Assembly: GCF_001644705.1 (NCBI RefSeq)
Contig: NZ_CP015137.1
Coordinates: 1,560,001 to 1,592,000, forward strand
Direction of reading: 5' to 3'
Source: Dickeya solani IPO 2222
Lineage (GTDB): Bacteria; Pseudomonadota; Gammaproteobacteria; Enterobacterales; Enterobacteriaceae
Length of the DNA: 32,000 bases
Shown: piece after piece, positions 5,295-27,210 of the stretch
Layout: the number at the start of each line of letters is the position of its first letter
Numbering within the stretch: position 1 is the first letter of the stretch
Notes under the pieces: generated by a model
Databases searched by the model: none
What the model was told of the DNA's origin: nothing
Seen by the model: only the letters and a program-made list of their open reading frames with translations
Made by a program: the position numbers and the translations under genes

Positions 5295-8200
5295 TCACGC
5301 CTCAGACGGCTCAAGTGTGAGCAATGCGTCTTCTTTCGCCATTTTTAAGTTCCTGAGCCACAGACACAGCACACCCGACTCGTCGTACAACCTCAGGTCG
5401 TACCCCGGAAGATCGCCGGTGATAATCAAAGGTTCGTGCCCTACAGGCGTAGGAGAGATATAAACCATCACTCGTTCTGTTATCGGCTTAAAGGCGATGA
5501 TCGAATCCAGAGAGAACGGATACCACTGGTTGCGCCCTGTCGCCTGGGGATGACAATACTGGTTTAGTGCGCAAAGTAACTGCCAGCAGGTAGTCAGCAG
5601 GACCGGCCGGAAAGTCGGCACATTCAACTGACGGGGCAGTTCGGCAAGGGAATTGAATGTCACCAGCAACTGCTTACCATCAAAATCGACTTTTTCGATC
5701 AAAGCCTGATTCTTCAGACCGTCTTCATCGAATATCCGTCTGATTTGATGGGTTGTCTGATGGTTATGAGAGGCTTCCAGCTGCTTTTCCAGTTCCCGGA
5801 TATCCAGCGTGTCGCCCCCGCCGCCAGCAGTAGTGTTCAGGACAATTTGCCCAAAATTATGAGTCACGGATTCACCCGCTTTCTCAGTCACGCACTGGAA
5901 ATAGAGGCCATCATCTTCCCGGGAGATATAAGTCTGAATATGACCATTGAGGGCATCCTGCATACGGGCAGGCTGCCCCCACAGGATATAATTCAGTTCG
6001 GCAGTATGTTGCGGGGGCGCCATGTTTTCCCGGGTTGCCTGTTCCCAGGCACATCGTGCCGACTCCAGCAACAAGAGTCCAGGGAGTTGCCCCTGGGCGG
6101 CAATCACACCTGCCGCCATCATGTTCCCATAAGCGGAAAAATCGCCCGGAACATTAACTAACGCCTGAGCCGGCAACGTCTGTTGAAGCCCTCTGACGGT
6201 TTCTTCGGCCACCACGCTATTGCCGTGCGAAAACGCGGGGTGATCGGCAATGGAAACGGAAGACGCTGGACCAGAAGCGTCCGTCGTATCCGAAGAGAAA
6301 GCCGTCTCATCCGAAGCTATCGGGGAATGATCCGTATGCATGGTCGTCAGGTCGACCCAATAACGTTCGCGGGCAAAAGGGTACGTCGGCAGAGAAACCC
6401 GCTTGGGTCTGAGTGATGGCGCCACACTGGAATAGAGGATCTCCCAGTCGATATTCATGCCTTTCACCCATATATCCAGAAGCTTGGTAAATTTACCTTT
6501 ACTGGCCCATGCCTGAATCAGGTCATGCATATCTTCATCGACATCGAATACGGACAACGCATCACGATGCAATTTACTCTTTCCCTGATAGAGTAAATCG
6601 ACGGTCTGCTGCTCACCGGCAAGAACAGCTGAAAGCTTACGTTGCAATTCATCAAGAGTGTGGGCAACCAATCCCAAACGCTCATTCATCGCTTCACGTC
6701 CGGTTTGCAGGGTATAAGCCAGTGAGTGAAGGTATGCTTGCGCATGCCCTGCACTCTCTCCTTTCGCCTCTATCCGATTCGCATATTCGTTCACATGAGC
6801 CAGCAGATTGGCGGTCATCTGTTTGAGCTGTACATCATTTTTCGCCGACAACGGAATCAGTGCCGGATCGCGGGATAAATATTCTTCCGCAGAGATTTTC
6901 CTGGCCGATGGTTCCATCGCAGATAGCCCCTCAGTCGGGAATTGCTCAATGACTAAGTGGGCATTGGTTCCACTGAATCCGAAAGAACTCACGGCAGCCT
7001 GACGTCGCTGACCGGATTCCACTATCCAGTCTCTGAGTTCCCGGTTGACATAAAAAGGTGTGCCGTCCAACGTAATGTGCTCATTAAGTTCCTGATGATG
7101 CAGCGTTGGAGGAATCTGTTGGTTCTTCATTGCCAGCAACACTTTGAGCACCGAAGCGACCCCGGCGGCCCTCAGCGTGTGGCCGATGTTGCTCTTCACC
7201 GACCCCAGTGCGCAGTAGTTCTCTTTTTGGGTAAAGAGAGAGAAGGTCTGTTTTAGACCCACGACTTCCACAGGATCCCCCAGTTTGGTTCCTGTTCCGT
7301 GCGTCTCTACATACTGTATTTGCTCAGGATCGATACCAAAGCCGGTGTATACCGCCTGCTCCAGGCGAGACTGAGCATTGCCGTTCGGGGCCGTAATCCC
7401 ATTACTTTTACCATCCTGATTCACCCCCCAGCCTTTGATCACGCCGTGAATAACATCCTGATCTTCAATCGCATCTTCCAGGCGTTTTAACAGCACCACA
7501 CCAACGCCTTCTCCGGGGACAAAACCATTGGCTCGCTGATCAAAAGTAAAGCAGCGGCCATCTTCCGACAGCATTCCGGCCTTGCTGGTCATAATGTGCA
7601 TGCTTGGGCCAGCCAACACGGAGACCCCACCGGCCAGGGCCAGATCGCTATTTCCCAGCACCAGGCTGTCACAGGCAGATGCAATCGCCACCAGAGATGA
7701 CGAACAAGCCGTATCAATAGCCAGGCTCGGCCCCTGTAAATCCAGATGGTAGGCAATTCTTGCCGCTAAAATGGAAATCGCATTTCCCATAAAGGCTTGT
7801 GCATTGAGTTCCATTCCAAAGCGCGCGTCGTAGTCACCCTCCCCGCAACCGACGAAAACGCCGCACCGACTACCAGATAAATCAGCAGGGTTGTACCCAG
7901 CATCTTCAATACACCCCCAGCACGCCTCAAGAAATACCCGCTGCTGCGGATCCATCATCTCGGCTTCCCGGGGAGAAATATTAAAAAACAGCGGATCAAA
8001 CTTATCTGCATCTTCCAACACGCCCATCCATTTGGAATAGGTTTTGCCGGGTGTGTGACGATTACGATCGAAAAAGTCTTCAATCGCCCAGCGTTCCGCC
8101 GGAACTTCTGAAATACAATCGTCCCCTTTGCTCAAATTCTCCCAGAACTGTTGCAGATTCTTAGCCTTCGGGAACTGACCAGACATACCTACGATAGCAA

Positions 8201-11200
8201 TCGCCTGGCGCCTGGCAGGAGCCGGGCTTATAGCCAATTCTGTGTTTGCGGCGCAGGGGGTCGCCACTGCCTGTGGCTCGACACGTTCGGCCTTCAGGAG
8301 CGTCTGTTTGGCACTCGGTATCGATGTCTGAGACAGACCAGCCATAAGCTCAGCGCCGGTGTCAGAAGCAGAGGGCTGGGTCAATGTTGCTTCACCAAAA
8401 ACCGCAGAATCAGGAAGCGAAGATTGGCCAAGCCCGGAACAACGCTGAACCAGCAAGGCGAACTCTTGTAACGTTGGATGGCTGTATACTTCGGCAGCAT
8501 TCAGGTCCAGCCCGTAGTGCTGGTTGATCTTTCTGATCCAGGTGACACCGGTAATCGAATCCAGACCCAAATCGACAAACGCAACATTCGGATCGATCGC
8601 CTGAGGTTTGATTTGCAGCTCTTGAGACAGCGTTTGGCTTAAAAATTCCAGAATATTGGCTGGGGGCGTATTCGCGCGTTTCCGGGCATCAACCACATTT
8701 TCCCGAACATTGCTCCCAACAGTGACGTTGGATAACCCCACCGGTGCGGGTACAAAGCCGGGTGTCATCTCTGCCTCTATTTCCCGGCGTTCACCGGTTG
8801 CAGTATTTAGCCCCGCTTCTTTGATCACCAGCCCAGTGAATACTTTCAGACTGGGATAGCTGTACACGTCGGCAGCATTGAGAGTAAGCCCGTATTCCGC
8901 GTTGATGTTTCTAATCCAGGTGACGCCGGTAATCGAGTCCAGACCGAGATCAACAAAGGGTTGTTCACTTTCAATTTGTTCGGTTCTGATTTGCAACTCT
9001 TCTGCCAGCATGCGACGTAACAGGGAATAAACCTGTTCAAACACAGCATTACTGTCTTGTTCTTTCTGCACGGCACTCGTTGAATCCAACGCTTTCGTGC
9101 CCTGGACTCCAGAAACGCGCTGGTGACTGGCCTGCTCCTGACCACTGATTTGTTCCCGGTGGCTGAGCATCCCCTGGTTAAAATGCTGTTGGATACGAGC
9201 CAGCACCTCCTGATTGCCGACAAAAGTATGCTCATGCATCCGAAGCTCCAGAACATAATTCGCTTCGACTTGATTTCTGATGCGCCGCGAACGCTGTGTC
9301 TTCCTGGCAACCAGCTCATCTCGGGACATTCGGGCCATGGCATTGGCAGCCGCCAGAGCAAATGGCAGCACTTGAGCACGTTCAAGTACCGGGCTTTTGA
9401 GCCCGCGGGCCTGAAGTTCAAAACCTTTATACTCTTTGGCGGTAAACAGAACTTCTCTGGCAATATCCAGACCCAGGCGGCAGGGAAGAATGAGGGTTGA
9501 TCCGGCTCCCGGAGTGAATCCGTAGCGCATATAAGGACTGTAATAGACGCTTTCCTGACTGAAAATCGCATCGTCACAAAACATGCCCACAGCCCAGCCG
9601 GGACCAATACCATGCCCTTGCATGGCTGCGATCACCGGAATATCGCACTCCAGCGGTAAGGCAAAGATTTTCTCATCGGTAAACTTTGCGCTTCCCTTCT
9701 GGATCGCCTGCAACGTTTCCATCGTACCGCCGCTGGCAAAGTAGTGGTCATACCCGGTAAGCACCACCACTTTATAGGCCTGATTCTGGTGAATATGAGC
9801 AAAGATCTCTTCAAAACCGGCAACAAAGGCTTTCGAGAATTTATTACGACTTTCCCGCTCACACAACCGGACCAGCAGAACACCATTGTCATAGACTTCA
9901 GCGTCGATAACCGGAGAATTGAGCGCCACCTTGCGCGGCTTGCCCTGAGGTAATCCCAATTGCCCGGCCTTAAATGCCTGTAACCAGCTTTCCGTCAGTA
10001 CAGCGGATTCATGAGATTCAGGTACGGCCCTCTCGACAGCAAAAGCGAGCGGCCTCTCAGTCAACGCAACAGACTGACCGACAAGATTGGCTGCCAAATG
10101 TTGCTTCAATTGAATGAGCGCCTCTCTGGGCACGCTCGCCAGTTCCTGCGCCAGCTTCAGGCTTTCCTCGGCAACCTCCGTCGAAGGGAAAACCGGCATC
10201 AGCAAGCCCAGTTCTTTCAGATGGCGCCCTTCAATTCCCCGCCAATCGGTCAGCAATACCTGAGCCGCGGATGGTGTAAAACGCTCGCTAAGAAGATGAT
10301 ACAACTGCTGCGATACCATCTGTTTCTGGCTGACATACTGATAGCGGCCCGTGGTACTCAAAACAGCAAAATCGCACAGGCAGACAAACAACCACGCATA
10401 ACCTTTGCAATCGCCCGGTACAGAAGCGATCACTGGAAACGGCAACTCCAGAACGGTCCGATACAGCGCTTCTTGCAAAAACAGTTCGGTATCATCTTCG
10501 AGAGCGGGAAGAAAATGGTGTTCATCACCGCTGATCAGCAGAACGCTGATGTCCGTCCGATTTTTTATTTCATTGAGTAGACGGTGAAGATGACTGAGCC
10601 GGGCCATTCCCGGAGAATCCTCTATTAGCGAGCTGCCATTAGCATCATGAAGCCGAAGGCAAAATATGCCCTGGCCTTCATCCGTCAAACGAAATGGAGA
10701 GTTCTCAACGTTTAGATTCGAAACCTGAAATGGCGCTGCCACCTGAAATGCTTGCAGAGAAGCAAGTACCCGCTTGCCTTCTGCGCGTTCACCGGTTTTT
10801 TGACTGTCAGCTACGTCCAATACCGATAGCTCGGCATCTGCCGACATAACATCCGCCGACATAACATCTACCGACATAACAGTGGAGGCTCGTGCTGCCT
10901 GGCTATTCAGGGTATCCGGTGCCGAGTAGCGAGCGTCCTCTGGCAACCAGTACCGGTCTTGCTCAAAAGGATAAAGCGGCAAACCTGCCACACGTTGGCG
11001 CGGGGTCTGATACCATGCCGCCCAGTCGATTTGTCGACCTTCGAGCCATTGTCCGGCCAGCCCCCGTAAATCACGTCGCTGAATAGATGTATCGATGTCT
11101 GCCTGTTGCCGCCTGCTGTTACCTTTGTTTTTCTCTCCTTGCGCAACAGTGCCGGTAAGATAACTTTGAGCAAACGTATTCCGGTTTAGATAATCTTCCA

Positions 11201-14200
11201 GCCCAGTGAGTATCTCAGCATCGCTTTTTCCGGCAACAGCCAGGCGATGGCCTAAAGATTCACGTCCCAGTTGTAACGTATAAGCAATGTCTTTTAACCC
11301 ATTGGTTGTCAGATGCGGATGCTGCTGAATATACACTTTCAGTTGCCGGGCTAAGACATGCAATTGCGCTTCACTTCTGGCAGAAAGCAGTAATAGCGCG
11401 GGCTCAGGATCCAATTCCGGGAATTGGCTTGCTGGCGACACTTCCGACGGTCGGAATTCTTCAAGCACCATATGGACATTGGTCCCGCTAAAGCCGAAAG
11501 AACTCACTGCTGCGATCCGCTTTCCCTGAGAATTCGGTTGCCAATCCTTAACCTGGGTATTGACGACAAAAGGCGTGTCTTCAAAGGGAATCAGTGGATT
11601 CGGCTTTTCATAGTTCACGCTGGGAGCCAACTTACGATGCTTGAAAGACAGCAGGAGCTTGATCAGCGCACTGACCCCAGAAGCATGGACACAATGGCCG
11701 ATGTTACTTTTTACCGATCCAATTGCACAAAAACCGGTACGCTGGGTCTGTCTGCGGAAGGCATCTGTCAGGGCGGTGATCTCGATTGGATCACCTAGCT
11801 TCGTTCCGGTGCCGTGAGCTTCAATATAGGTCAGATCGTCAGCACTGAGATTCAGCTCATCGTATACCTGGCAAATCAACTCGGTCTGCGAGCGACTGCT
11901 TGGCGCTGTAATCCCGTTCGTCTTACCATCCTGGTTCATGCCTGAGCCTTTGATCACACTATAAATGTGGTCTTTATCGTCAATTGCATCCTGCAACCGC
12001 TTTAGGATCACGACACCAACCGCTTCGCCCGGCACAAAACCATCAGCCCGGTGATCAAAAGGCTTACAACGCCCATCGGCCGACAACATCCCGGCTTTGG
12101 CACACAAAATGTGGAAGTTGGCCGTGGTATGGATTGAAACACCACCGGCAATTGCCATATCGATAGCGCCGTTTCTCAAACTTTCACAAGCCAAATGTAC
12201 CGCAGCCAATGACGATGAAGAGGCGGTATCGATCGCCATCGCCGGGCCTTTCATGTCCATAAAATAGGCAATCCGGGCAGCCAAAATCGATGAGTCGTTC
12301 CCCATAAATGAAGAGGCATCGAGTGGGATATCATGCTGTCGCAGATTAGCCTGATAGTCCCCGGCATCGGCACCGGCATAAACGGCCCATTTTTTGTCTT
12401 TTATCTCACGGTTGGCATATCCAGCATCTTCCAGCGCGTGCCAACTTTCCTGTAAAAACAAACGTTGCTGAGGGTCCATTTGCCTGGCTTCTTTGCCGGA
12501 AATTCCAAAAAAAGAAGCATCAAATTTATCAATATCTTCAATAAACCCGCCCCATCGGCCATAGGTCTTATTTGGCTTCGTACGGTCTTCATCAAAATAG
12601 GCAGCAATATTCCAACGCTCTGCCGGGACTTCGGAAATACAATCGCCACCGTCCAGTAACAAGGACCAGAACGCATCGACATTCACCACGCCGGGGAAAC
12701 GTGCGGACACTCCGATAACGGCAATATCCCCCTCATAACCCCCCTCATAGATAGGCCGGGCCGTCTTGCTGGTATCATCCGTTTTTTGCAGGATTTTTCT
12801 TGTCTGGTTGGCTTCGCTGCGTTGTACCGTATCATCCTGAATATCGATTTCCCGCCACTCCGACTGCATACGCGTCACAATAGCATTCTGATAATTTTCC
12901 ATCAGATAGCAGCGTAAATCATTCACACAGCCATAATCGAAGAGCACCGTACTGGGAAGTTTTATCGCAAAAGCGCCGTTCAGTTTTACAACCAAATTAA
13001 TTGCTGCAAAGGAGTCAACGCCATACTCAGAAAATGCTTTAGCCTCGTCGATATCAACCTTTTTCTTCAGACATTCAAGCAAGTTCTTCACGAGCACTGC
13101 GTTGATATAATTCAGGATGGCGTCTTCGTCGATGTCGACGGATTGCGGCACAATCTCTTGTTCTGTCTGCTGATACTCTGCCTGTTCATATTCCGATTCA
13201 GACCGGAGAGTCGGTAACCGCCCACGATGATCACCGATCTGTTGCATCAGGATCGTATCTGTCGACGGCAACCTTTGCTGCGAAGCTGTTGCAGACTCAG
13301 ATTGTGCATTTTCATTACTTGAAGCAATCGTCTGTGATGAGGGAGTAAAAACCAGTTCGGCTAACACAGTGGCTGGTATGGTGTAAGTCCACACGCCGGA
13401 AGATTCTGATACATACTGGATTGAGTCGATACTGCGCAGGAATATTTCAGCCGGTTTGTTTTTATCACTTGCCGCAAATCGGATTTCAACGGTCTCTTTC
13501 TTCCGTTCCAGAGCTTTCCGACCTAGTACATTCAGCATCTGATATTCAACACCACGCCCCAGCACACGACAACTGAGCAATCCCCCATCAACGGATAGCA
13601 CATTTTCCCGCTCGGAGAAAAAGCACAAACCGCAAATACCATAATCGCCGAATCGATCAGCGACACGGATACTCAGACAACCCTGTTCTGGGCTCTGAAT
13701 TCTGGCAAGAATATCGGCAACGGTGTATGGCGCTTTGACAAAGTTAAACTGATTGGTGCGATGCGTCAGTTGAGATAGTCTCTCAGCCTGGTCTTGCGTC
13801 GCTGGCTGGATTGTAATTTCAAGTTCCAGTCCGCGAATGAACGCCTCCATACTGAATGCACTCTGACGGAACGCTTCACGCCGAACCTGCTCCTGATACA
13901 TGTGGGTACGTTTTGCGTCTTCATTCGTTTGGCGATGCACCTGATCAAAGCCCCAGACATGAGCAAGGAATCCCGGAATATCGTTACTATTTTCAGGCAA
14001 TCGCAAACTTAATACCTGTGGGCAGCCAGCAGAAACTTCAGCGTATTCAATCGGACTATCATCCAGAAAAATAAAGCTATCCAAGCCCAGGTTTAGGTTT
14101 TTTGCCAGACGTTGAAGATTATCGGACTTGGCATTCCAGTTGATTTTTGTGTCAACAAAATCATGCCATTGCAAAATCATGTCGTCACGACTGTCAAATA

Positions 14201-16847
14201 CCCGCTTGACGTCCTCATGATTATTCTTGCTCACCAGACATAAAAGCATGCCCTGCTCTTTCTGGCGTAACATGAACTGTTGCAACGCACGATAATTCGA
14301 ATCGATCTTGATGCCTTCGGCCCCCTGTTCACCAACCACGCCAGACCACAGCGTGTTATCGCAATCAAGGGCGATCACTTTATAAGGGGGGCGCTGGAAG
14401 GCATGGATATGACGCACAAGAACCGATGCAATGATCTCAAAAAACTCTGGTGTATAAGGAATATGCCCCATCTCATCACGAACGGCATCGTGGTATTCGG
14501 TGACATCATAAGCCGCCGACTCGCTGTTCAGATCAATGCCGATAATATCCGTCTTATCCCCCAGAATCTGTTGCATCATCTGAGGCATGTTCTCAAGCAG
14601 ATCGGTAGAAAACCTTTCCCGCATCTCTGGGGACGGAGGGCAAAGCACAAAGAGCGTAGGCCCCCGACGGCTACCTTGTGTCTCTCTGACCAGGGTCAGC
14701 AGTTCCTTAAAGTTATCGCTGATCCCCTGCTCAAATGGAGTAAGGCGATGCTGATTGTCAGCATGAGCAACAGGACGTCTGGCATAAAAATTGGCTAAAC
14801 CTGAAGACTTAAGCATCTCTTCTTCAACAATCGCCAGCTCAAAGCCTTTATCCCGCAGTAACCGGGCTATTTTATCCGCGGTTGTACCTTCTTTATCATG
14901 AACTTCAACGACAACCTGACGAATATTCGGCCATATTTCATCAGCAATACTGCTTAAAATGTCCCATTCGCATTTTTCGGCATCCACTTTCAGCAGATCG
15001 ATAGTCTCAATATGATGCTCTTGCATAATACTGGCTAACGAACGCATCTGAACCTGATAGGTTTGTTTTTGCAGACGCTCACTGATCATGGCATCCAAAT
15101 GTTCCCGAATAGCTTCACTATCCGTATCGCCGAAACGCTTGGTCACTTCATTTTCCATTGATTTTTTCAGCGCTTCGCCATCTTCTGTTTCATCGGTATG
15201 AAACCCTGACCAGACCGAAGAATTCGGGTAAAAAACAAATTCGGCTTCCCCGTCCTTGTCGGCAATACCCACTTGCAAAGCTTTCGCCTGAGGCGCATAC
15301 AATGCGAGGTTCTTTCGAAGAATGGCGTAAGAAATCGGTGAAGGTTCGCAAGAAAAAATACGTAAATCAGGACATTGGGTTGTAGCAAACAGAGAGAACA
15401 TTCCGATGTTGCCGCCAATATCGACTATCACATCTCCCTGTTGAAAAGAAATGCCGTGCTTCGCGTATGTTTTCTCTACGAAAATCTCTTCATAGAGATA
15501 GCTGGTTTCATAAGGTTTTAGATGTGCGACCTCCATACCGTTAGGCAGTACAAAGCGTTCACAATCCGTCAAATGATGCTCAATTTGCTCCGAAGAAACC
15601 TGGGGTACCTCACCTTTCCCCGAGGTCGCAGTTATCGGAGGCATAGTTGTCGGAGGCATAGTTGTCGGAGGCATAGTTATCGAAGGAATAGTTATCGGGC
15701 CATTGGCAACCAGATCTTCTAACCGACAGAGAATCGCATTTACACCTTCGGTGTTCGCGGTCAGTAAACGTTGTTGATCCAGAAGTTCCTGATAAACTTG
15801 GTTATATGGCGCAAATTTAATCTGATCGTTCCAGTTCAGGCGAGAGAACCATACTTGCAAAGGTTCAGCGATCGGCTCTGCGGTGAAGGTCGCAGCAATG
15901 GCCCATGATTGACCAGCAACACTCCCCGTTTGATTTTGTTGACCAAAGCCCGATTGGTTGTCTGTCAGTTGTTCTATTTCCACCGTCTGCTCACTTTGTT
16001 CGGCTCTTTGATATGAGCGAATATGTAACCCTTTCATTTCCACCAATATCTCTCCCGACTCATTAGCTAAAAACACATCAAAAACTCCCTTTTCGGGCGT
16101 GTCTGAAACGGCCTGTCTGGGTATGACAAACACATCACACTTTGGCGTTAAATGTGTGTAAATCACGATATTTTCTAACGAAAAAGGCACATAAACCTGA
16201 TGTTGATGATCGCACCGCCGGGTTTCTCTGACGCCAAGTAAAACAGTTTGAACTGCGGCATCGAGTATGTAGGGAGAAGGGAGGTCTGTCAGACTCGCTT
16301 CATCAGCCACGATCCGACCCCAAAAAAGATCCTGGCTGCAGTGAAGCTCGTCCAGACACTGAAACTGTTCCCGGTAGTTGATTCCGCCGGCCAGAAACAA
16401 GCGGTAAATTTCATCGCGGTTCAGCCGATGAGTGAAGGTGTGAGATGACGTATCAGGAAGACGAAAAACAGGTGCTTCGGCATTGTTTGTAGCCAGTTTC
16501 TTATTCAAACCAGGCTCATTGTTTAAACCTGAGAAAACAACACCTGTCGCATGGCGTTTTGTCGCGTTTCCCGGAACCTTGGATGTGACCCAATAGGTGG
16601 TGCCATCCCCATCAGTATCCAGATGAATATTAACCTGGCAAACGCCCTCCGCAATGGCTAGTGGCGCAAACCATACGGCATCTTTTACCCGAAAAGGGTA
16701 GATAGAAAGCTCATGATTACTTTGCCTTTTATCCAAGAGGGAGGCCGCGACAAAATGAATATATCCCATCGCCGGTAGGATTGGTTCATCTAATACTATG
16801 TGTCCAGAAATAATAGTGCTTCTATTATTTAATGTGTATTCTGACAT
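5295..16847 (-). CDS. trans-AT type I polyketide synthase, 3850 aa: DH-like / FkbM-MT / FkbH / ACP / KS(Cys->Ser) / ECH-degenerate / ECH2 / ACP / ACP / KS / DH-degenerate
   Basis: Single 11.5-kb ORF; AAGGAGG Shine-Dalgarno sequence (complement of 16853-16859) upstream of the ATG. Motifs in order: HIVLDEPILP and LDAAVQ; VIVDIGGNIGMF; LDCDNTLW and LLSCRVLGRG; YGVDSF; DTASSSSL/EAHGTGT/SNIGH; two crotonase folds; GLDSITGVTW x2; DTACSSSL/ETHGTGT/SNIGH; hot-dog-like C-terminus. No GHSxG acyltransferase motif seen. Confidence 0.95.
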   Translation of the reverse strand: MSEYTLNNRSTIISGHIVLDEPILPAMGYIHFVAASLLDKRQSNHELSIYPFRVKDAVWFAPLAIAEGVCQVNIHLDTDGDGTTYWVTSKVPGNATKRHATGVVFSGLNNEPGLNKKLATNNAEAPVFRLPDTSSHTFTHRLNRDEIYRLFLAGGINYREQFQCLDELHCSQDLFWGRIVADEASLTDLPSPYILDAAVQTVLLGVRETRRCDHQHQVYVPFSLENIVIYTHLTPKCDVFVIPRQAVSDTPEKGVFDVFLANESGEILVEMKGLHIRSYQRAEQSEQTVEIEQLTDNQSGFGQQNQTGSVAGQSWAIAATFTAEPIAEPLQVWFSRLNWNDQIKFAPYNQVYQELLDQQRLLTANTEGVNAILCRLEDLVANGPITIPSITMPPTTMPPTTMPPITATSGKGEVPQVSSEQIEHHLTDCERFVLPNGMEVAHLKPYETSYLYEEIFVEKTYAKHGISFQQGDVIVDIGGNIGMFSLFATTQCPDLRIFSCEPSPISYAILRKNLALYAPQAKALQVGIADKDGEAEFVFYPNSSVWSGFHTDETEDGEALKKSMENEVTKRFGDTDSEAIREHLDAMISERLQKQTYQVQMRSLASIMQEHHIETIDLLKVDAEKCEWDILSSIADEIWPNIRQVVVEVHDKEGTTADKIARLLRDKGFELAIVEEEMLKSSGLANFYARRPVAHADNQHRLTPFEQGISDNFKELLTLVRETQGSRRGPTLFVLCPPSPEMRERFSTDLLENMPQMMQQILGDKTDIIGIDLNSESAAYDVTEYHDAVRDEMGHIPYTPEFFEIIASVLVRHIHAFQRPPYKVIALDCDNTLWSGVVGEQGAEGIKIDSNYRALQQFMLRQKEQGMLLCLVSKNNHEDVKRVFDSRDDMILQWHDFVDTKINWNAKSDNLQRLAKNLNLGLDSFIFLDDSPIEYAEVSAGCPQVLSLRLPENSNDIPGFLAHVWGFDQVHRQTNEDAKRTHMYQEQVRREAFRQSAFSMEAFIRGLELEITIQPATQDQAERLSQLTHRTNQFNFVKAPYTVADILARIQSPEQGCLSIRVADRFGDYGICGLCFFSERENVLSVDGGLLSCRVLGRGVEYQMLNVLGRKALERKKETVEIRFAASDKNKPAEIFLRSIDSIQYVSESSGVWTYTIPATVLAELVFTPSSQTIASSNENAQSESATASQQRLPSTDTILMQQIGDHRGRLPTLRSESEYEQAEYQQTEQEIVPQSVDIDEDAILNYINAVLVKNLLECLKKKVDIDEAKAFSEYGVDSFAAINLVVKLNGAFAIKLPSTVLFDYGCVNDLRCYLMENYQNAIVTRMQSEWREIDIQDDTVQRSEANQTRKILQKTDDTSKTARPIYEGGYEGDIAVIGVSARFPGVVNVDAFWSLLLDGGDCISEVPAERWNIAAYFDEDRTKPNKTYGRWGGFIEDIDKFDASFFGISGKEARQMDPQQRLFLQESWHALEDAGYANREIKDKKWAVYAGADAGDYQANLRQHDIPLDASSFMGNDSSILAARIAYFMDMKGPAMAIDTASSSSLAAVHLACESLRNGAIDMAIAGGVSIHTTANFHILCAKAGMLSADGRCKPFDHRADGFVPGEAVGVVILKRLQDAIDDKDHIYSVIKGSGMNQDGKTNGITAPSSRSQTELICQVYDELNLSADDLTYIEAHGTGTKLGDPIEITALTDAFRRQTQRTGFCAIGSVKSNIGHCVHASGVSALIKLLLSFKHRKLAPSVNYEKPNPLIPFEDTPFVVNTQVKDWQPNSQGKRIAAVSSFGFSGTNVHMVLEEFRPSEVSPASQFPELDPEPALLLLSARSEAQLHVLARQLKVYIQQHPHLTTNGLKDIAYTLQLGRESLGHRLAVAGKSDAEILTGLEDYLNRNTFAQSYLTGTVAQGEKNKGNSRRQQADIDTSIQRRDLRGLAGQWLEGRQIDWAAWYQTPRQRVAGLPLYPFEQDRYWLPEDARYSAPDTLNSQAARASTVMSVDVMSADVMSADAELSVLDVADSQKTGERAEGKRVLASLQAFQVAAPFQVSNLNVENSPFRLTDEGQGIFCLRLHDANGSSLIEDSPGMARLSHLHRLLNEIKNRTDISVLLISGDEHHFLPALEDDTELFLQEALYRTVLELPFPVIASVPGDCKGYAWLFVCLCDFAVLSTTGRYQYVSQKQMVSQQLYHLLSERFTPSAAQVLLTDWRGIEGRHLKELGLLMPVFPSTEVAEESLKLAQELASVPREALIQLKQHLAANLVGQSVALTERPLAFAVERAVPESHESAVLTESWLQAFKAGQLGLPQGKPRKVALNSPVIDAEVYDNGVLLVRLCERESRNKFSKAFVAGFEEIFAHIHQNQAYKVVVLTGYDHYFASGGTMETLQAIQKGSAKFTDEKIFALPLECDIPVIAAMQGHGIGPGWAVGMFCDDAIFSQESVYYSPYMRYGFTPGAGSTLILPCRLGLDIAREVLFTAKEYKGFELQARGLKSPVLERAQVLPFALAAANAMARMSRDELVARKTQRSRRIRNQVEANYVLELRMHEHTFVGNQEVLARIQQHFNQGMLSHREQISGQEQASHQRVSGVQGTKALDSTSAVQKEQDSNAVFEQVYSLLRRMLAEELQIRTEQIESEQPFVDLGLDSITGVTWIRNINAEYGLTLNAADVYSYPSLKVFTGLVIKEAGLNTATGERREIEAEMTPGFVPAPVGLSNVTVGSNVRENVVDARKRANTPPANILEFLSQTLSQELQIKPQAIDPNVAFVDLGLDSITGVTWIRKINQHYGLDLNAAEVYSHPTLQEFALLVQRCSGLGQSSLPDSAVFGEATLTQPSASDTGAELMAGLSQTSIPSAKQTLLKAERVEPQAVATPCAANTELAISPAPARRQAIAIVGMSGQFPKAKNLQQFWENLSKGDDCISEVPAERWAIEDFFDRNRHTPGKTYSKWMGVLEDADKFDPLFFNISPREAEMMDPQQRVFLEACWGCIEDAGYNPADLSGSRCGVFVGCGEGDYDARFGMELNAQAFMGNAISILAARIAYHLDLQGPSLAIDTACSSSLVAIASACDSLVLGNSDLALAGGVSVLAGPSMHIMTSKAGMLSEDGRCFTFDQRANGFVPGEGVGVVLLKRLEDAIEDQDVIHGVIKGWGVNQDGKSNGITAPNGNAQSRLEQAVYTGFGIDPEQIQYVETHGTGTKLGDPVEVVGLKQTFSLFTQKENYCALGSVKSNIGHTLRAAGVASVLKVLLAMKNQQIPPTLHHQELNEHITLDGTPFYVNRELRDWIVESGQRRQAAVSSFGFSGTNAHLVIEQFPTEGLSAMEPSARKISAEEYLSRDPALIPLSAKNDVQLKQMTANLLAHVNEYANRIEAKGESAGHAQAYLHSLAYTLQTGREAMNERLGLVAHTLDELQRKLSAVLAGEQQTVDLLYQGKSKLHRDALSVFDVDEDMHDLIQAWASKGKFTKLLDIWVKGMNIDWEILYSSVAPSLRPKRVSLPTYPFARERYWVDLTTMHTDHSPIASDETAFSSDTTDASGPASSVSIADHPAFSHGNSVVAEETVRGLQQTLPAQALVNVPGDFSAYGNMMAAGVIAAQGQLPGLLLLESARCAWEQATRENMAPPQHTAELNYILWGQPARMQDALNGHIQTYISREDDGLYFQCVTEKAGESVTHNFGQIVLNTTAGGGGDTLDIRELEKQLEASHNHQTTHQIRRIFDEDGLKNQALIEKVDFDGKQLLVTFNSLAELPRQLNVPTFRPVLLTTCWQLLCALNQYCHPQATGRNQWYPFSLDSIIAFKPITERVMVYISPTPVGHEPLIITGDLPGYDLRLYDESGVLCLWLRNLKMAKEDALLTLEPSEA
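5313..6185 (-). other. PKS domain: C-terminal degenerate DH-like (hot-dog) domain
   Basis: AAGVIAAQGQLPGLLLLE aligns to the DH HxxxGxxxxP box with Gly (codon 6108-6110) where the catalytic His should be. The second-box position reads LLTTCWQ instead of DxxxQ/H. Confidence 0.6.
6945..8207 (-). other. PKS domain: KS2 (canonical)
   Basis: AIAIVGMSGQFP...IDTACSSSLVAI (Cys codon 7704-7706)...VETHGTGTKLGDP...SNIGHTLRAAG...SSFGFSGTNAHLVIEQ. Confidence 0.92.
8442..8660 (-). other. PKS domain: ACP (second of a tandem pair), Trp flag
   Basis: ILEFLSQTLSQELQIKPQAIDPNVAFVDLGLDSITGVTWIRKINQHYGLDLNAAEVYSHPTLQEFALLV. Confidence 0.88.
8817..9044 (-). other. PKS domain: ACP (first of a tandem pair), Trp flag
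   Basis: VFEQVYSLLRRMLAEELQIRTEQIESEQPFVDLGLDSITGVTWIRNINAEYGLTLNAADVYSYPSLKVFTGLV; Ser codon 8934-8936. Confidence 0.88.
9180..9911 (-). other. PKS domain: in-line enoyl-CoA hydratase/crotonase, ECH2 (decarboxylase, PksI/CurF type)
   Basis: YKVVVLTGYDHYFASGGT...PVIAAMQGHGIGPGWAVGMFCDDAIFSQESVYYSPYMRYGFTPGAGST. Closely parallels the free-standing ECH2 at 21581-22330 (VILTGYDSYFATGGT...PVISAMQGHAVGGGLVMGLFADFVIMSQESIYTANFMKYGFTPGMGGT). Confidence 0.85.
10068..10715 (-). other. PKS domain: degenerate crotonase-fold domain (ECH*)
   Basis: Crotonase-like spacing (ISVLLISGDEHHFLPALEDD ... PFPVIASVPGDCKGYAWLFVCLCDFAVLS ... LASVPREALIQLKQHL), but the FxAGxD and GxxxGGG oxyanion-hole boxes are not conserved. 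Confidence 0.6.
10841..10880. repeat. ~2.7 x 15-bp in-frame tandem repeat encoding (MS[VA]DV)n in the KS1-ECH linker
   Basis: ccgacataacatcNN at 10841 and 10856, with a partial copy at 10871. PKS frame reads MSVDV-MSADV-MSAD. Confidence 0.9.
11457..12728 (-). other. PKS domain: KS1 with active-site Cys replaced by Ser
   Basis: DIAVIGVSARFPG...AMAIDTASSSSLAAVH (Ser codon TCT = complement of 12219-12221, where DTACSSS is expected)...EAHGTGTKLGDP...SNIGHCVHASG...SSFGFSGTNVHMVLEE. Confidence 0.9.
12894..13130 (-). other. PKS domain: loading ACP
   Basis: ILNYINAVLVKNLLECLKKKVDIDEAKAFSEYGVDSFAAINLVVKLNGAFAIKLPSTVLFDYGCVNDLRCYL; Ser codon 13011-13013. Confidence 0.85.
13353..14705 (-). other. PKS domain: FkbH-like glyceryl-ACP synthase/phosphatase (HAD-IIIC core plus catalytic-Cys domain)
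   Basis: YKVIALDCDNTLWSGVVGE (DxDxT; first Asp codon 14364-14366), LVSKNN, FLDDSP, GLLSCRVLGRGVEYQML (Cys codon 13569-13571). Confidence 0.85.
14778..15560 (-). other. PKS domain: FkbM-family SAM-dependent methyltransferase
   Basis: GDVIVDIGGNIGMFSLFATTQCPDLRIFSCEPSPISYAILRKNL...EAEFVFYPNSSVWSGF...IDLLKVDAEKCEWDIL. This matches my memory of the FkbM (Methyltransf_21) pattern. Confidence 0.75.
15625..15696. repeat. ~4.8 x 15-bp in-frame tandem repeat encoding ([TI][TI]MPP)n
   Basis: ggaggcatagttgtc at 15637 and 15652 (identical), ggaggcatagttatc at 15667, gaaggaatagttatc at 15682, partial copy at 15625-15636. PKS frame reads PITIPSITMPPTTMPPTTMPPITAT. Confidence 0.95.
15993..16847 (-). other. 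PKS domain: N-terminal DH-like hot-dog domain
   Basis: ISGHIVLDEPILPAMGY gives HxxxDxxxxP (His codon 16800-16802), i.e. the DH HxxxGxxxxP box with Gly->Asp. PYILDAAVQTVL supplies the DxxxQ box. Confidence 0.6.
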
Positions 16848-17653
16848 CTCGACCTCCTTGTCACCAATATGTTTAAACCATTTTGGTTAAATCTCGAAAG
16901 CTTCGTTCCTGAAAGTTTCGTTACTGACGTATTTAAAAAATATAATAAAAATTCAAATAAAATATTGGAAACAAAAATATAGACTGAGATGAATATTAGA
17001 AAACCCAAAGGAAACTCCGGGTCTAAAAAGAAAACTCTAGGTATGAAATGAGATCATACTTTATTAATTGAAAACATATGCGTGTTACCAGCGTGTTATA
17101 GATGTGTTTTTTACTCAATGGGAAAATTATTACAAATTATTTCTAACATTATATTAAATTATTTTTCCCCAATAAAAACAGACGAATAACCGCTCAAAAT
17201 AATAGCCTCTTTTGAGGGGAACAGGCCGAGTTGAGCGATTTGGCCAATCGCCACAAAGATATATCATCAACCGGACTGAGCGATGCTGAATATCGCCCGC
17301 GCCGAACGGCGCCTGAGACAGAAAAAGCTCCACAAAACATTCGACAAGAGCCATGCACACAGGCTCATAGCGATGTTGATACTGCATCGGGGTAACCGTG
17401 TTGGCGATGTTCCAGGATGCTCCACTGCGCCCTGTTATTACAGCTTGAATGGCTGAATAAGGTTCAGCATTTTATGACAATCGTTAGTCTCTTCCCCGGA
17501 GAGGGCATAGAAGATGAGTGGCCTGTTGAGTATTAAGTTGGTGTTCAGCTTTTATTGATAAGAACACTGATTGACACGCCTTTCTTCGCTGATATAGAGT
17601 TGCTTATAAGTTAAAGAGATAAAATCGCATTCATTTATCCCAAAAGAAATATC

Positions 17654-17779
17654 TATATCCAAAATAATTCGAGTTGCAGGAATACAGCGATGCAACTAAT
17701 CCCCTGGAGCTTACAAAAGTGAGTGACTGGGATGGATAAGGAAAGTCAACGCCCTGCAACGTGAGACATGATGGGTATA
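17654..17779. repeat. ERIC/IRU element (enterobacterial repetitive intergenic consensus, MITE-like), ~126 bp
   Basis: tatatccaaaataattcgagttgcagg...cccctggagcttacaaaagtgagtgactggg...cctgcaacgtgagacatgatgggtata. The core matches the ERIC consensus behind the classic ERIC1R/ERIC2 primers (CCCCAGGAGCTTACAT / AAGTAAGTGACTGGGGTGAGCG), and the ends are inverted repeats. Confidence 0.75.
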
Positions 17780-17930
17780 ACCATTAAGGAAAATAATCAA
17801 AACAACCGGTTAGATTCTCGAATTTCATTATCAGTCGGTAATTAGTTTGATAGTTTTATTTGTAGATGAATTTTCTCTACCTGTAGTCATTTTTAATTAA
17901 GTCAGTCATGCACAAGTTAAGGAGCATCAT

Positions 17931-18182
17931 ATGAGCCACAAAAGCAAGGAAGATATTTTCAATATTATCGTGCATAACTTACTGGAAATCCTCCCATATC
18001 TGGATACCAGTACCATTGCTCTAGAACAGAGCATGAAAGACTTAGGAGCCAATTCAATTGACCGGGCTGATGTTCTGCTCTCTAGCATGGAAACCCTCGA
18101 TCTCATGTTCCCTCTCCATGAAGCCGGAGACCTCAAAAATATCGGAGAATTAGTGGATTTCCTGCACGCCAAAGCACAGTAG
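17931..18182 (+). CDS. discrete acyl carrier protein of the beta-branching cassette (donor ACP, AcpK/CurB type)
   Basis: 83 aa; AAGGAG Shine-Dalgarno sequence 6 nt upstream. MKDLGANSIDRADVLLSSME phosphopantetheine site (Asn-Ser instead of Asp-Ser). Immediately precedes KS(Ser)-HMGS-ECH1-ECH2. Confidence 0.85.
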   Translation: MSHKSKEDIFNIIVHNLLEILPYLDTSTIALEQSMKDLGANSIDRADVLLSSMETLDLMFPLHEAGDLKNIGELVDFLHAKAQ

Positions 18183-18245
18183 TCATCCACACTATGCTGA
18201 TCTTCTGGCGAATATGGCCTTTCAGTGAATCAAAGCAGGATGCGT

Positions 18246-19502
18246 ATGAAGAACAATGTCGTTGTGACCGGCTTAGGCGTAGCAGCTGCGAATGGAATCG
18301 GAATACCAGCTTTTACCCAATCACTGAAAACAGGTATCAGTGGAATCAACAGGCATACCAACGAATTTCCAGAAATCAAGGCAAGCCTGGCTGATTACAA
18401 CTATAAGGCGGCATTAGAGTCTTTATCTCTCACTCAGGAAGAGCGAAAAGATGCTTTGCGCCTGGGGGCCAGAGTGCCGTTGAGTACCCGGGTATCACTC
18501 GCAACTGCACTTGAAGCCTGGCATGATGCTTTTGCCGACGGATGCCCTTACCCTCCAGAACAAAGGGGAATCATCATTGCCGGGCATAACGTCGAGCAAA
18601 AATATCAATATCAAATCCGACAATCCTTCATCGACCAACCCGAATTTGTTCCTGCAAGTTATGCGCTGTACTTTATGGACACAAATCAGTTAGGTCTGAT
18701 CAGCGAGCTTTTAACTATCCGTGGAGAAGGCTGTACTGTTGGTGGCGCTTCAGCCAGCGGAAACTCCGGCATTATCCAGGCATACAGGCAAGTCGCATCA
18801 GGAATCACCCAGTCTTGTCTGGTCGTCGGAGCAATGGCAGATTTATCACCTCCAGAGATACAGGCATTCAAAAACAGCGGCGCCCTGCTGACCCAAAGCG
18901 ACTCTAGTGATCCCGCACAGCTTTGTCGCCCCTTTGATCAAGATCGAAAAGGGTTTGTTTACGGTCAAGGATGTGCCTGTCTGTTGCTGGAAAATGAACA
19001 AAGTGCCCGTGAACGCCACGCACCGATTTGGGGACGAATTCTTGGTGGCAGTATCTGCCTGGATGCCAATCGAGGCAGTAATCCAAGTTGTGAAGGTGAG
19101 TCTCGGGTGATGCAACAGGCGCTGTTGACTGCCTGTTGTCCCTATGATTCGGTCGACTACATCAATACGCATGGCACCAGTTCACTTATGGGCGATGAAA
19201 CTGAAATCGCCGCCATCAAGCGTGTTTTTGGCCCTTACCATCAACGGATTTGGCTCAATTCAACCAAAAGCCTCACGGGGCACTGCCTGTATGCCGCCGC
19301 TGCCGTAGAGACGGTAGCCACATTGATACAAATGAAAGAGCGCTTTCTTCACCCAAACTTGAACCTGGAAACACCGATCAACGATGAATGCCGTTTTGTC
19401 GGGCAACATGCCCAACACCAGGAAATCAAAGTCGCTTTGAATAATGCCTTCGGTTTCGGCGGCATTAATACCTGTGTTGTGTTGGCGCATGCCAGCCAAT
19501 AG
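18246..19502 (+). CDS. free-standing KS-like malonyl-ACP decarboxylase (KS with Cys->Ser; PksF/CurC type)
   Basis: FabF-like fold. TVGGASASGNSG, where STACATG is expected (Ser codon TCA 18750-18752); NTHGTSSLMGD and SLTGHCLYAAA histidines retained. The ORF track starts at GTG 18225. I prefer ATG 18246 (MKNNVVVTGLG) because AGGA sits 5 nt upstream. Confidence 0.85.
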   Translation: MKNNVVVTGLGVAAANGIGIPAFTQSLKTGISGINRHTNEFPEIKASLADYNYKAALESLSLTQEERKDALRLGARVPLSTRVSLATALEAWHDAFADGCPYPPEQRGIIIAGHNVEQKYQYQIRQSFIDQPEFVPASYALYFMDTNQLGLISELLTIRGEGCTVGGASASGNSGIIQAYRQVASGITQSCLVVGAMADLSPPEIQAFKNSGALLTQSDSSDPAQLCRPFDQDRKGFVYGQGCACLLLENEQSARERHAPIWGRILGGSICLDANRGSNPSCEGESRVMQQALLTACCPYDSVDYINTHGTSSLMGDETEIAAIKRVFGPYHQRIWLNSTKSLTGHCLYAAAAVETVATLIQMKERFLHPNLNLETPINDECRFVGQHAQHQEIKVALNNAFGFGGINTCVVLAHASQ

Positions 19503-19533: not shown

Positions 19534-20796
19534 ATGATTTCTGTTGGAATTGAAGCGATAAACGCATTTTGTGGTACCAGCTACATTAATGTCAGAGATC
19601 TGGCTCAACACCGCCAGCTAGATATGTCCCGTTTTGATAATCTCTTGATGAAGCAAAAAACGGTGAGTTTGCCTTGTGAAGATCCTGTCAGCTTTGCCGT
19701 CAATGCAGCAAAACCCATTGTGGATTCGTTAAGTGAGCAAGAAAAAAACAGCATTGAACTGTTGATCACCTGTACAGAATCAGGAATCGACTTCGGCAAA
19801 TCAATCAGTACCTATGTTCACCACTATCTGGGGCTAAAGCGAAACTGTCGCTTGTTCGAATTGAAAACTGCCTGTTACTCCGGTGTTGCCGGCTTGCAAA
19901 TGGCTGTCAATACAATCCTTTCCCAGACATCTCCCGGCAGCAAAGCTTTAGTTATTGCCACAGATATGACGCGCTTTATTCTGGAGGAAGAAAACGGTGA
20001 CCATACCAGCCAGGACTGGTCTTTTGCCGAGCCGAGCGGTGGCTCCGGCGCTGTTGCCATGCTGGTCAGCGACTCCCCTCACGTTTTTCAGATCGATGTG
20101 GGTGCAAACGGCTATTACGGTTATGAAGTGATGGATACATGCAGGCCTGTCCCGGATAGAGAAACCGGCGATTCGGATCTGTCATTACTGGCTTATCTGG
20201 AATGTTGTGAAAAGGCCTACCTGGAGTACGAAAAACGCGTTGCTGGCATTGATTATGTCAACACATTTGGTTATCTGGCATTCCATACGCCTTTCGGTGG
20301 AATGGTCAAAGGCGCTCACCGTAACATGATGCGTAAACTGATTCGCGCCACCCCCCAGGATACAGAAGCCGATTTTAATCGTCGCGTGGCTCCTGGGCTG
20401 AATTATTGTCAGCGCGTCGGTAATATCATGGGGGCAACATTAGCACTTTCCCTGCTCAGCACCTTGTCGAATGCGGATATTCAGTCACCACAGCGGATTG
20501 GGTGTTTTTCTTACGGTTCTGGATGTTGTTCCGAGTTTTTCAGTGGTGTCGTTACCCCTGAAGGCTGTCAGCGTGTAAGACAGCTGGAAATCGGGGCTCA
20601 TCTTGACAGACGCCGCGAACTGACGATGAGTGAATATGACGCGCTGCTTTACGGCAACCATGGGGTCCGCTTCGGTACCCAAAATGTCACTCTGGACCTG
20701 AGTCATTTCCCCCAGATCCATTCCGCTACCCAGAAAGCCCGTCATCTCGTACTGAGCCGAATCAACGAATTTCACCGTGAATATGAGTGGGTCTGA
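19534..20796 (+). CDS. HMG-CoA synthase homologue (PksG/CurD-type beta-branching HMGS)
   Basis: 420 aa. ELKTACYSGVAGLQ (catalytic Cys), LAFHTPFGGMV, CFSYGSGCCSEFFSG. AGAGGGA Shine-Dalgarno sequence upstream. Confidence 0.92.
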   Translation: MISVGIEAINAFCGTSYINVRDLAQHRQLDMSRFDNLLMKQKTVSLPCEDPVSFAVNAAKPIVDSLSEQEKNSIELLITCTESGIDFGKSISTYVHHYLGLKRNCRLFELKTACYSGVAGLQMAVNTILSQTSPGSKALVIATDMTRFILEEENGDHTSQDWSFAEPSGGSGAVAMLVSDSPHVFQIDVGANGYYGYEVMDTCRPVPDRETGDSDLSLLAYLECCEKAYLEYEKRVAGIDYVNTFGYLAFHTPFGGMVKGAHRNMMRKLIRATPQDTEADFNRRVAPGLNYCQRVGNIMGATLALSLLSTLSNADIQSPQRIGCFSYGSGCCSEFFSGVVTPEGCQRVRQLEIGAHLDRRRELTMSEYDALLYGNHGVRFGTQNVTLDLSHFPQIHSATQKARHLVLSRINEFHREYEWV

Positions 20797-20798
20797 CA

Positions 20799-21575: not shown

Positions 21576-21580
21576 AGAGA

Positions 21581-24211: not shown

Positions 24212-24287
<76 letters not shown>

Positions 24288-24335
24288 TTGGGTGAGTCAT
24301 AACGCGGCACGGTGTGCTGTCGTTATGTGGGGCGC

Positions 24336-24363
24336 ATTATACGAAAAACGTTTCGTCTCGCAA
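24336..24363 (-). promoter_or_regulatory. sigma70 promoter for the tRNA-Gly gene
   Basis: Minus strand: TTGCGA (24363-24358), 16-nt spacer, TATAAT (24341-24336), then the GC-rich discriminator GCGCCCC typical of stringently controlled stable-RNA promoters. Confidence 0.55.
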
Positions 24364-24469
24364 CCCCTTAAATGAAAAATACGGTTCAACCGCTGACAAA
24401 ACCGGCAGCTCGCAGAAAAAAACCGCTACCGCCGATTTTCCACTCGGCCCTGAGCACAAGTTTCCCGCA

Positions 24470-25012: not shown

Positions 25013-25146
25013 CGTCGCCATTCCCATGGGGTTTCGCCGCCAGCGGGCTGACAGCCCTACTGGCGGCGGTTAATTAAAATAAAATAGCGTGTATTATAGT
25101 CGCTTCCATCGCCACCGGCGATAAGCGCCGAACCAAGAGAGACTGC

Positions 25147-26196: not shown

Positions 26197-26266
26197 CATT
26201 TATCGTATCCACCGCTACAATGCGCCCCTTTTTATGGCGTACCCTAAAAAAACAACGAGGCCCACA

Positions 26267-27181: not shown

Positions 27182-27210
27182 CCCCATCAATACGCCTGAG
27201 GAGGCCAGCC

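Follow-up and report, generated by a model that had tools for sequence, protein, structure and literature searches.

FkbH domains load a glycerate-derived unit from 1,3-bisphosphoglycerate onto an acyl carrier protein (ACP), and in the loading module of the polyketide synthase (PKS) OocJ such a domain is accompanied by a dehydratase (DH) domain and an FkbM-type methyltransferase (MT). The locus considered here raises the question of how these domains are arranged: does the MT stand ahead of a complete FkbH domain or does it lie within it? The window (the whole stretch of DNA that was analyzed, 32,000 nucleotides long, at positions 1,560,001 to 1,592,000 of contig NZ_CP015137.1 of Dickeya solani IPO 2222) carries a single uninterrupted open reading frame (ORF) of 3850 aa at 5295–16847 on the minus strand, a trans-acyltransferase (trans-AT) PKS that we identify from its sequence as OocJ, the first PKS of the oocydin/haterumalide (ooc) cluster; the loading region comprises its first 1318 residues (12894–16847). 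We propose that the MT is a domain-in-domain insertion within the N-terminal domain of FkbH (FkbH_N), rather than a partner in a linear MT–FkbH fusion, and that the loading module built in this way is a route to a 2-methoxyacrylyl starter. We assign this reading, taken as a whole, a probability of about 0.86.

The OocJ module has already been published, together with its gene cluster and a proposal for its chemistry, and the window adds nothing to present knowledge of oocydin biosynthesis. The published module string is DH-MT-FkbH-ACP, with the domain order given linearly (PMC4552970, PMC6174933), and we found no description of an MT nested in FkbH_N in the searchable literature; the nested topology hence appears to be the sole undescribed element.

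Domain Layout of the Loading Module

A preliminary description, made from the sequence alone, had listed a hot-dog DH-like domain, a ([TI][TI]MPP)n repeat, an FkbM-type MT and a HAD core with a catalytic-Cys region followed by an ACP. All of these elements are present in that sequence within the one ORF, and the DH, MT and FkbH/HAD-IIIC families all score above their curated cutoffs in hmmscan. The DH occupies residues 9–285 (15993–16823; this and all other domain coordinates of the loading module are on the minus strand), where PF14765 matches residues 136–285 with 67.6 bits (cutoff 23.7) and PF21089 matches residues 9–84, and its family profile matches the DH structures of CurF, CurK and CurJ at E values of 1e-44 to 1e-41. 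It is followed by the proposed first part of FkbH_N (residues 312–383, 15699–15914), a strand-helix-strand-helix-strand unit delimited by BLASTP, hhalign and AlphaFold2, and by the (T/I)TMPP repeat (residues 384–406, 15630–15698), which was located by Tandem Repeats Finder (TRF) in a disordered linker. The inserted domain, an FkbM-type class I MT, covers residues 428–692 (14772–15566) and was recognized by Foldseek and by two family models matched over their full lengths, TIGR01444 (89.5 bits against a cutoff of 37.7, model positions 1–143 of 143, residues 473–650) and PF05050 (56.9 bits against 22.7, model positions 1–173 of 173), which jointly span residues 473–671; among the sequences of the Protein Data Bank (PDB), the MT domain has no significant relative (best E 0.19).

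The proposed second part of FkbH_N, at residues 704–821 (14385–14738), was delimited by collinearity with FkbH proteins that lack an MT. It runs into the HAD-IIIC phosphatase core of FkbH (residues 822–1000, 13848–14384; TIGR01686, TIGR01681 and the structure 3slr) and then into the GNAT-like C-terminal domain of FkbH (residues 1001–1145, 13413–13847; TIGR01686 up to residue 1140, and Foldseek), which carries C1093. The TIGR01686 match scores 291.7 bits (cutoff 146.65) across residues 822–1140 and model positions 3–317 of 323. The loading ACP (ACP_L; PF00550, match at ~1250–1315) closes the module at residues 1245–1318 (12894–13115), with its GVDS motif at residues 1276–1279. Annotators place FkbH on the HAD core and C-terminal part only, leaving residues 312–383 unassigned.

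In a family alignment of 55 sequences, OocJ departs from none of the invariant positions. The DH retains both motifs named in the preliminary description (H16xxxD20xxxxP25 and D196xxxQ200), and the sole deviation seen is YRE in place of the usual YGP motif. The MT retains the glycine-rich VDIGGNIG motif (from residue 475; D476, G478, N480 and G482), E501-P502 of CEPSP (from 500), K620/D622/E624 of KVDAEKCE (from 620) and E648/H650/D651 of EVHD (from 648), so that none of the family-invariant residues, including those of the S-adenosylmethionine (SAM)-binding region, is missing. The DCDNTLW (D828 and D830, within LDCDNTLW from 827), S873-KNN and DDSP (D929 and D930) motifs of the HAD core are invariant in all 55 sequences, as are C1093 of SCRVLGRG (from 1092) in the FkbH C-terminal domain and G1276 and S1279 of ACP_L.

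Sequence Evidence for an Interrupted FkbH_N Domain

To place the MT relative to FkbH, we compared a spliced OocJ sequence (residues 311–383 joined to 703–1142, with 384–702 removed) with FkbH proteins lacking an MT. In tblastn searches of plasmid sequences, the spliced query produced single-piece alignments over its residues 1–511. The closest of these, to Aquisphaera giovannonii, has 44.8% identity over 511 aa encoded by 1545 nt, and there is therefore no space for an insertion in the Aquisphaera protein; further matches were found in Streptomyces anulatus (41.6% identity), in Ralstonia megaplasmids (40%) and on plasmid p1 of Burkholderia sp. FERM BP-3421, in the FkbH domain with which a PKS begins (34.7%). 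We take this Burkholderia strain to be the FR901464/spliceostatin producer and its FkbH domain to be a loader of a glycerate starter. When native OocJ, a stand-alone homologue and the MT-less proteins were aligned with MAFFT, every MT-less sequence showed a gap of ~320 aa that falls exactly between RLEDL/W and the following helix.

The preliminary description had suggested that the two segments flanking the MT resemble a contiguous N-terminal extension of FkbH proteins, and this holds up in pairwise comparison: the equivalents of residues 312–383 and 704–821 are contiguous in the MT-less proteins, and both stretches rank among the best conserved of the family. Residues 312–383 alone, far from being dissimilar to FkbH N-termini, align with residues 15–86 of the Aquisphaera protein at 53% identity (BLASTP E 4e-22) and reach E 2e-4 against the FkbH domain of the Burkholderia PKS.

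More remote comparisons point to the same arrangement. The only solved structure related to the FkbH of OocJ is BF1531 of Bacteroides fragilis (3slr), which shares the N-domain and the HAD core at ~24–26% identity and has neither an MT nor a carrier protein. An unspliced family profile reaches residues 148–375 of 3slr only, and the spliced profile aligns with residues 51–376 in one stretch (HMMER E 1.9e-39), in which AEYNQVERQIMDPTS pairs with FAPYNQVFQELLDPES. Likewise, hhalign joins the spliced family to the BF1531 family in one alignment (26–524 to 26–530, E 3e-68) and the unspliced family in two collinear pieces (23–74 to 23–74 and 445–834 to 135–530). Taken alone as a family profile, the N-terminal segment matches the N-domain of the BF1531 family in register (hhalign E 3e-5, 24–66 to 24–66); the segment after the MT, taken alone against the same N-domain, does not reach significance (hhalign E 0.34) and is convincing only when anchored by its flanks. 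In BF1531-like proteins, residues 22–213 are covered by the 192-position Pfam model PF21211 ("FkbH, N-terminal domain"), which scores 297 bits in one of them, and the two OocJ segments map onto consecutive, nonoverlapping parts of this single domain. A duplication of the N-domain, considered in place of an insertion, was rejected because the two parts align to consecutive, nonoverlapping regions of FkbH_N and together equal its length.

In OocJ, FkbH_N breaks off behind its third strand (..CRLEDL, residue 382) and resumes with the next helix at residue 704, from where it runs into the HAD core. The intervening insert of ~320 residues consists of a disordered linker, a complete FkbM-type SAM-dependent MT and a short second linker. 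The nesting of the MT in the N-terminal extension of FkbH, first put forward in the preliminary description, is thus upheld by the gap in the MT-less proteins and by the collinearity of the spliced profile with 3slr.

Predicted Structure

An AlphaFold2 model of residues 301–1171, built from 81 aligned sequences, has a mean predicted local distance difference test score (pLDDT) of 88.8. The first part of FkbH_N is modeled at pLDDT 93–98; the repeat and linker residues 383–411 fall below 50; the MT extends over ~419–690 and is followed by a short low-confidence linker; and the chain then reaches the HAD core through a long helix (704–726), a strand (731–736, LFVLCP) and additional helix-strand units. 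Both halves of FkbH_N are predicted with confidence and the linkers as disordered, and the order β-α-β-α-β followed by α-β-α-β-α is consistent with what would be expected of one α/β domain. In Foldseek, 3slr is the best PDB match (E 4.9e-16); the alignment covers 279 of its 376 residues, a length that fits everything after the insertion point. This partial coverage is uninformative on the first part of FkbH_N, as a local alignment cannot bridge an insertion of 320 residues. Foldseek also relates the FkbH C-terminal domain to GNAT acetyltransferases and the insert to class I MTs.

Distribution of the Nested Arrangement

The extent of this arrangement among relatives was assessed by scanning hidden Markov models (HMMs) of each block over 257 proteins obtained from OocJ-derived searches. 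The order N-segment, MT, post-segment was found in 204 of the 257, with the two FkbH_N halves 259–323 residues apart (median 299). In 15 further proteins a homologous MT lies before, after or elsewhere outside FkbH, and the halves are 7–22 residues apart; the listed examples comprise seven with the MT immediately before an uninterrupted FkbH (working labels P0346, P0350, P0300, P0341, P0323, P0332 and P0375) and four with the MT well after it (P0351, P0363, P0368 and P0374). The nested form is one of three natural permutations and, among relatives of this MT, far outnumbers the other two.

Nested proteins occur in cyanobacteria, Pseudomonadota, Acidobacteriota, Chloroflexota, Ignavibacteriota and Desulfobacteraceae, and the insertion is ancient, since it is common to several phyla. 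The nested form is seen at the N-terminus of giant synthases and also in stand-alone proteins of ~1300 aa (DH-MT-FkbH-PCP, where PCP is a peptidyl carrier protein) or ~1000 aa (no DH); in Symploca, a stand-alone nested protein is encoded directly upstream of cis-AT PKS and nonribosomal peptide synthetase (NRPS) genes. The loading carrier of OocJ is of the ACP type (GVDS), and in the stand-alone DH-MT-FkbH proteins the terminal carrier is of the PCP type (FFExGGTSL) and matches NRPS PCP structures. In an exhaustive search of cluster representatives, residues 301–830 retrieved 1652 representatives at E ≤ 1e-30, an upper bound that includes matches to the MT only. A neighbor-joining tree of the FkbH core, calculated without support values, intermixes nested, linear and MT-less sequences. 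Many large synthases match the MT part only (query ~121–400), internally and often in MT-CP (carrier protein) repeats, and the same MT family therefore also acts as an in-line domain unrelated to FkbH.

The nested topology is real, general and useful for the annotation of domain boundaries, and it is no first-order surprise. A broader proposition, to which we give even odds, is that the "interrupted FkbH" constitutes a distinct, ancient and common assembly-line architecture in which an FkbM-type O-methyltransferase occupies the loop between strand 3 and the next helix of FkbH_N (in at least 204 proteins). Such a placement would keep the MT close to where the glyceryl unit is loaded, coupling O-methylation to loading and letting it take place before dehydration. 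If this is true, the interrupted FkbH would parallel the interrupted adenylation domains, and the uncharacterized FkbH_N would acquire a first role, as a scaffold for tailoring domains. Excising the FkbH or MT of OocJ-, phormidolide- or dysinosin-type loaders at their apparent boundaries would halve a folded domain; correct boundaries hence matter for loader expression, structural work and the engineering of enol-ether or O-methylglycerate starters. The three permutations (nested, MT before and MT after) also offer a natural comparison through which to see if the position of the MT influences how loading and methylation are coupled.

Comparison with Known Systems

The closest counterparts of the present protein are the OocJ proteins of the oocydin/haterumalide clusters of Serratia and Dickeya, which share its domain string and its neighbors (divergent ACP, ketosynthase (KS), HMG-CoA synthase (HMGS) and two ECH genes, an FMO-like gene and then a PKS gene). 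The phormidolide PKS (Bertin 2016, as cited in PMC6174933) agrees with OocJ in the domain composition of modules 1–2 and in the proposed 2-methoxyacrylyl starter and β-branch, but it lacks a subsequent oxygen-insertion module and therefore retains the starter in its product. Homologues from Leptolyngbya PCC 7375 and Adonisia are 43% identical to OocJ over the loader and ~50% over module 2, and have the same nested order, with the N-segment ahead of the MT.

The FkbH proteins of the Burkholderia FERM BP-3421 PKS, the Ralstonia megaplasmid and Aquisphaera share the same three-part FkbH with OocJ (35–45% identity to the spliced sequence), but their FkbH_N is uninterrupted, with 10–35 residues where OocJ has ~320, and they have no O-methylation domain at this site. 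The Aquisphaera protein, the closest MT-less FkbH (44.8%), is a stand-alone protein of 1003 aa encoded at 5962–8973 of A. giovannonii plasmid pOJF2_1; because it is surrounded by genes for glycosyltransferases, dTDP-rhamnose synthesis and an ABC transporter, its context suggests that it serves to modify polysaccharides and not to make polyketides.

Among NRPS loaders with the string OMT-FkbH-PCP (OMT, O-methyltransferase), DysB of dysinosin and BslA of suomilide/banyaside pair FkbH with an O-methyltransferase that modifies a glyceryl unit while it is attached to the carrier, as proposed for OocJ; they lack a DH, however, so that the product is 2-O-methylglycerate (then sulfated) and not an enol ether. 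DH-less nested proteins (Nseg-MT-post-HAD-Cterm-CP) are present in our census. A similar design principle is found in interrupted NRPS adenylation domains, in which an MT is embedded between core motifs of a substrate-loading domain, although the host there has the ANL adenylation fold and both the MT family and the chemistry differ from those of OocJ.

Proposed Chemistry and Alternative Explanations

The published account of this loading module has changed over time. ACP_L was found by site-directed mutation to be essential in S. plymuthica (PMC4552970). In the revision by Meoded et al. (2018), OocJ modules 1–2 share the domain set of the phormidolide PKS; module 1 has the architecture that uses 1,3-bisphosphoglycerate-derived starters, which in phormidolide gives a 2-methoxyacrylyl starter, and OocJ module 1 was assigned the same 2-methoxyacrylyl starter from 1,3-bisphosphoglycerate; module 2 installs a methylene β-branch; OocJ, OocK and OocL jointly insert oxygen in a Baeyer–Villiger reaction; and the starter portion is later lost through ester hydrolysis, an uncleaved congener having been isolated (PMC6174933). 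The O-methylated or dehydrated glycerate-type starter implied in the preliminary description agrees with this proposal; it is correct and not new.

We hypothesize that the nested module would act as follows, the steps being modeled on established FkbH, FkbM and PKS-DH chemistry and on the published ooc/phormidolide scheme. FkbH would take 1,3-bisphosphoglycerate, strip its 3-phosphate (D828/D830) and hand the glyceryl unit on, by way of C1093, to Ser1279 of ACP_L. The nested MT would then O-methylate the C2 hydroxyl, and the N-terminal DH (H16, D196) would eliminate the C3 hydroxyl by α,β-elimination to give 2-methoxyacrylyl-ACP; methylation would presumably come before dehydration, because a free enol would tautomerize to pyruvyl. 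Module 2 (KS-ECH-ECH-ACP-ACP) and the HMGS cassette would subsequently put in the β-branch, and the KS/DH-like region of OocJ, together with the monooxygenase OocK and with OocL, would insert oxygen, turning the starter into an ester-linked leaving group whose cleavage would account for its absence from oocydin A and its retention only in uncleaved congeners.

Several points weigh against this reading. In hmmscan against Pfam, PF21211 has no match at E ≤ 10 in OocJ, whether native or spliced; the model is too narrow for this protein, and the link to FkbH_N needs profile or pairwise comparison. The claim that the two halves make up one folded domain draws on homology to PF21211 and 3slr and on the order of secondary-structure elements, rather than on contacts. 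The order of methylation and dehydration is one that we infer, and the DH, MT and FkbH activities of OocJ are predictions from sequence. Moreover, an earlier paper described the characteristic DH and MT motifs as absent, judged both domains non-functional and predicted a malonyl starter (PMC4552970). That 2012/2015 view, in which the DH and MT are inactive relics, only the ACP matters and malonyl is the true starter, is in keeping with the lack of a glycerate-derived unit in oocydin A and with YRE in place of the common YGP in the DH. We nevertheless regard it as improbable: the DH has kept its His and Asp, the MT its invariant residues, the HAD core its aspartates and FkbH its Cys, and these intact catalytic residues disfavor a degenerate module; the loading module is 70–88% conserved between Serratia and Dickeya; and the C19 carboxylate was shown to arise by Baeyer–Villiger oxygen insertion and hydrolysis, with the uncleaved ester congener fitting an active loader (PMC6174933).

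The nesting itself could be questioned in two ways. Both segments may derive from FkbH_N and yet no longer fold together, the first having been co-opted (e.g., as an adaptor between DH and MT) and the second supporting the HAD core by itself, a view with which it would agree that Foldseek aligned to 3slr only the part after the insertion. The Foldseek coverage is neutral here for the reason given above, conservation of both halves among the strongest in the family is unexpected for a mere adaptor, and the first part is modeled at high confidence although it is flanked by disordered chain; we consider this loss of co-folding slightly less probable again than a relic. The least probable of the three, and in our view very unlikely, is a simple linear order of DH, linker, MT and FkbH, in which residues 312–383 would do no more than connect or dock domains and the N-domain of FkbH would start past the MT. 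The linear strings in the literature are in line with it, as is the absence of any Pfam or NCBIfam model on residues 312–383, and the census does include genuinely linear MT–FkbH and FkbH–MT proteins. Residues 312–383, however, match the N-terminus (the first 86 residues) of an MT-less FkbH at the identity and E value reported above and are collinear with 704–821 in every MT-less comparator; the post-MT segment (118 aa) is too short for the 192-position FkbH_N and aligns solely to its second part; and the truly linear proteins keep both parts of FkbH_N together, 7–22 aa apart. At the level of sequence, the linear order is already contradicted.

The Linker Repeat

The disordered linker at the insert's N-terminal junction contains the (T/I)TMPP repeat, a 15-bp unit in 4.6 copies with 90% matches, encoding ITIPS-ITMPP-TTMPP-TTMPP-ITATS; three of the units are identical or one base apart. 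Counted as (T/I)TMPP units, the present copy has five, against ~1–2 degenerate units in D. oryzae and none in the Serratia orthologues. The preliminary description had taken the insertion to be bounded by a recently expanded repeat. The recency stands, but the tie to the insertion does not: the insertion is common to several phyla and hence ancient, while the repeat is lineage-specific, so the two are unrelated. The repeat was accordingly rejected as a mark of the insertion boundary, similar arrays being found in other linkers of OocJ and of the downstream PKS. It is a recent, lineage-specific slippage expansion of a kind typical of this strain's linkers, and is probably without function.

A second array in OocJ, in frame and of the VMSAD type, lies at 10835–10881 (15 bp × 3.1 copies), and the partial downstream PKS gene contains arrays at 3352–3424, 635–724 and 1300–1349, one of which has an 18-bp unit in 4.1 copies with 96% matches and encodes SSGTTS units. 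The ooc genes of this strain seem prone to slippage in disordered linkers.

Genomic Context

The ORF at 5295–16847 (minus strand) has the overall organization DH-[FkbH_N::MT]-FkbH-ACP / KS-ECH-ECH-ACP-ACP / KS-DH-like region, in which the part beyond the loading ACP (a KS, two ECH domains, two ACPs, a KS and a DH-like region) was assigned with curated domain models. In a scan of species-representative genomes, residues 1–1318 are 88% identical to the orthologue of D. oryzae ZYY5 and 70% identical to that of S. marcescens MSU97, and the divergent KS and HMGS genes occur in the same arrangement in both (KS 94% and HMGS 96% identical in D. oryzae; 81–88% in S. marcescens MSU97). S. marcescens MSU97 is counted among the oocydin A producers (PMC4552970). 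Our identification of the ORF as OocJ follows from this orthologue identity of 70–88%, the conserved divergent KS and HMGS genes and the oocydin A production of MSU97.

Directly downstream, in the position of OocK, is a gene for an FMO-like monooxygenase (3927–5231, minus strand; PF00743, E 2.4e-49), which on position and family is the candidate OocK; beyond it a further PKS gene, partial in the window, begins with an ACP followed by a KS. On the other side of oocJ, a divergent β-branching (HMGS) cassette on the plus strand comprises an ACP (17931–18182), KS (18225–19502), HMGS (19534–20796) and two ECH genes (20787–21575 and 21563–22330), in an order that agrees with the published oocG-C operon (PMC4552970); a LysE-type exporter gene follows the second ECH. 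The intergenic gap between oocJ and the cassette (16848–17930) is ~1.1 kb long and low in G+C (~39%), and it should contain the two divergent promoters, of oocJ and oocG, that Matilla et al. (2015) investigated.

The G+C content climbs from 39–53% to ~60% around position 24000, and a tRNA-Gly(GCC) is encoded at this jump (24212–24287, minus strand). Past the tRNA are orn (an oligoribonuclease-like ORF at 24470–25027, minus strand), rsgA, psd and a gene for a large MscS-type channel, with 25147–30534 (plus strand) in that stretch, and the ooc island appears to sit inserted beside this tRNA-Gly/orn locus. An ORF of 245 aa at 24314–25051 (plus strand) has no Pfam match, overlaps the orn-like ORF on the opposite strand and is probably not a gene.

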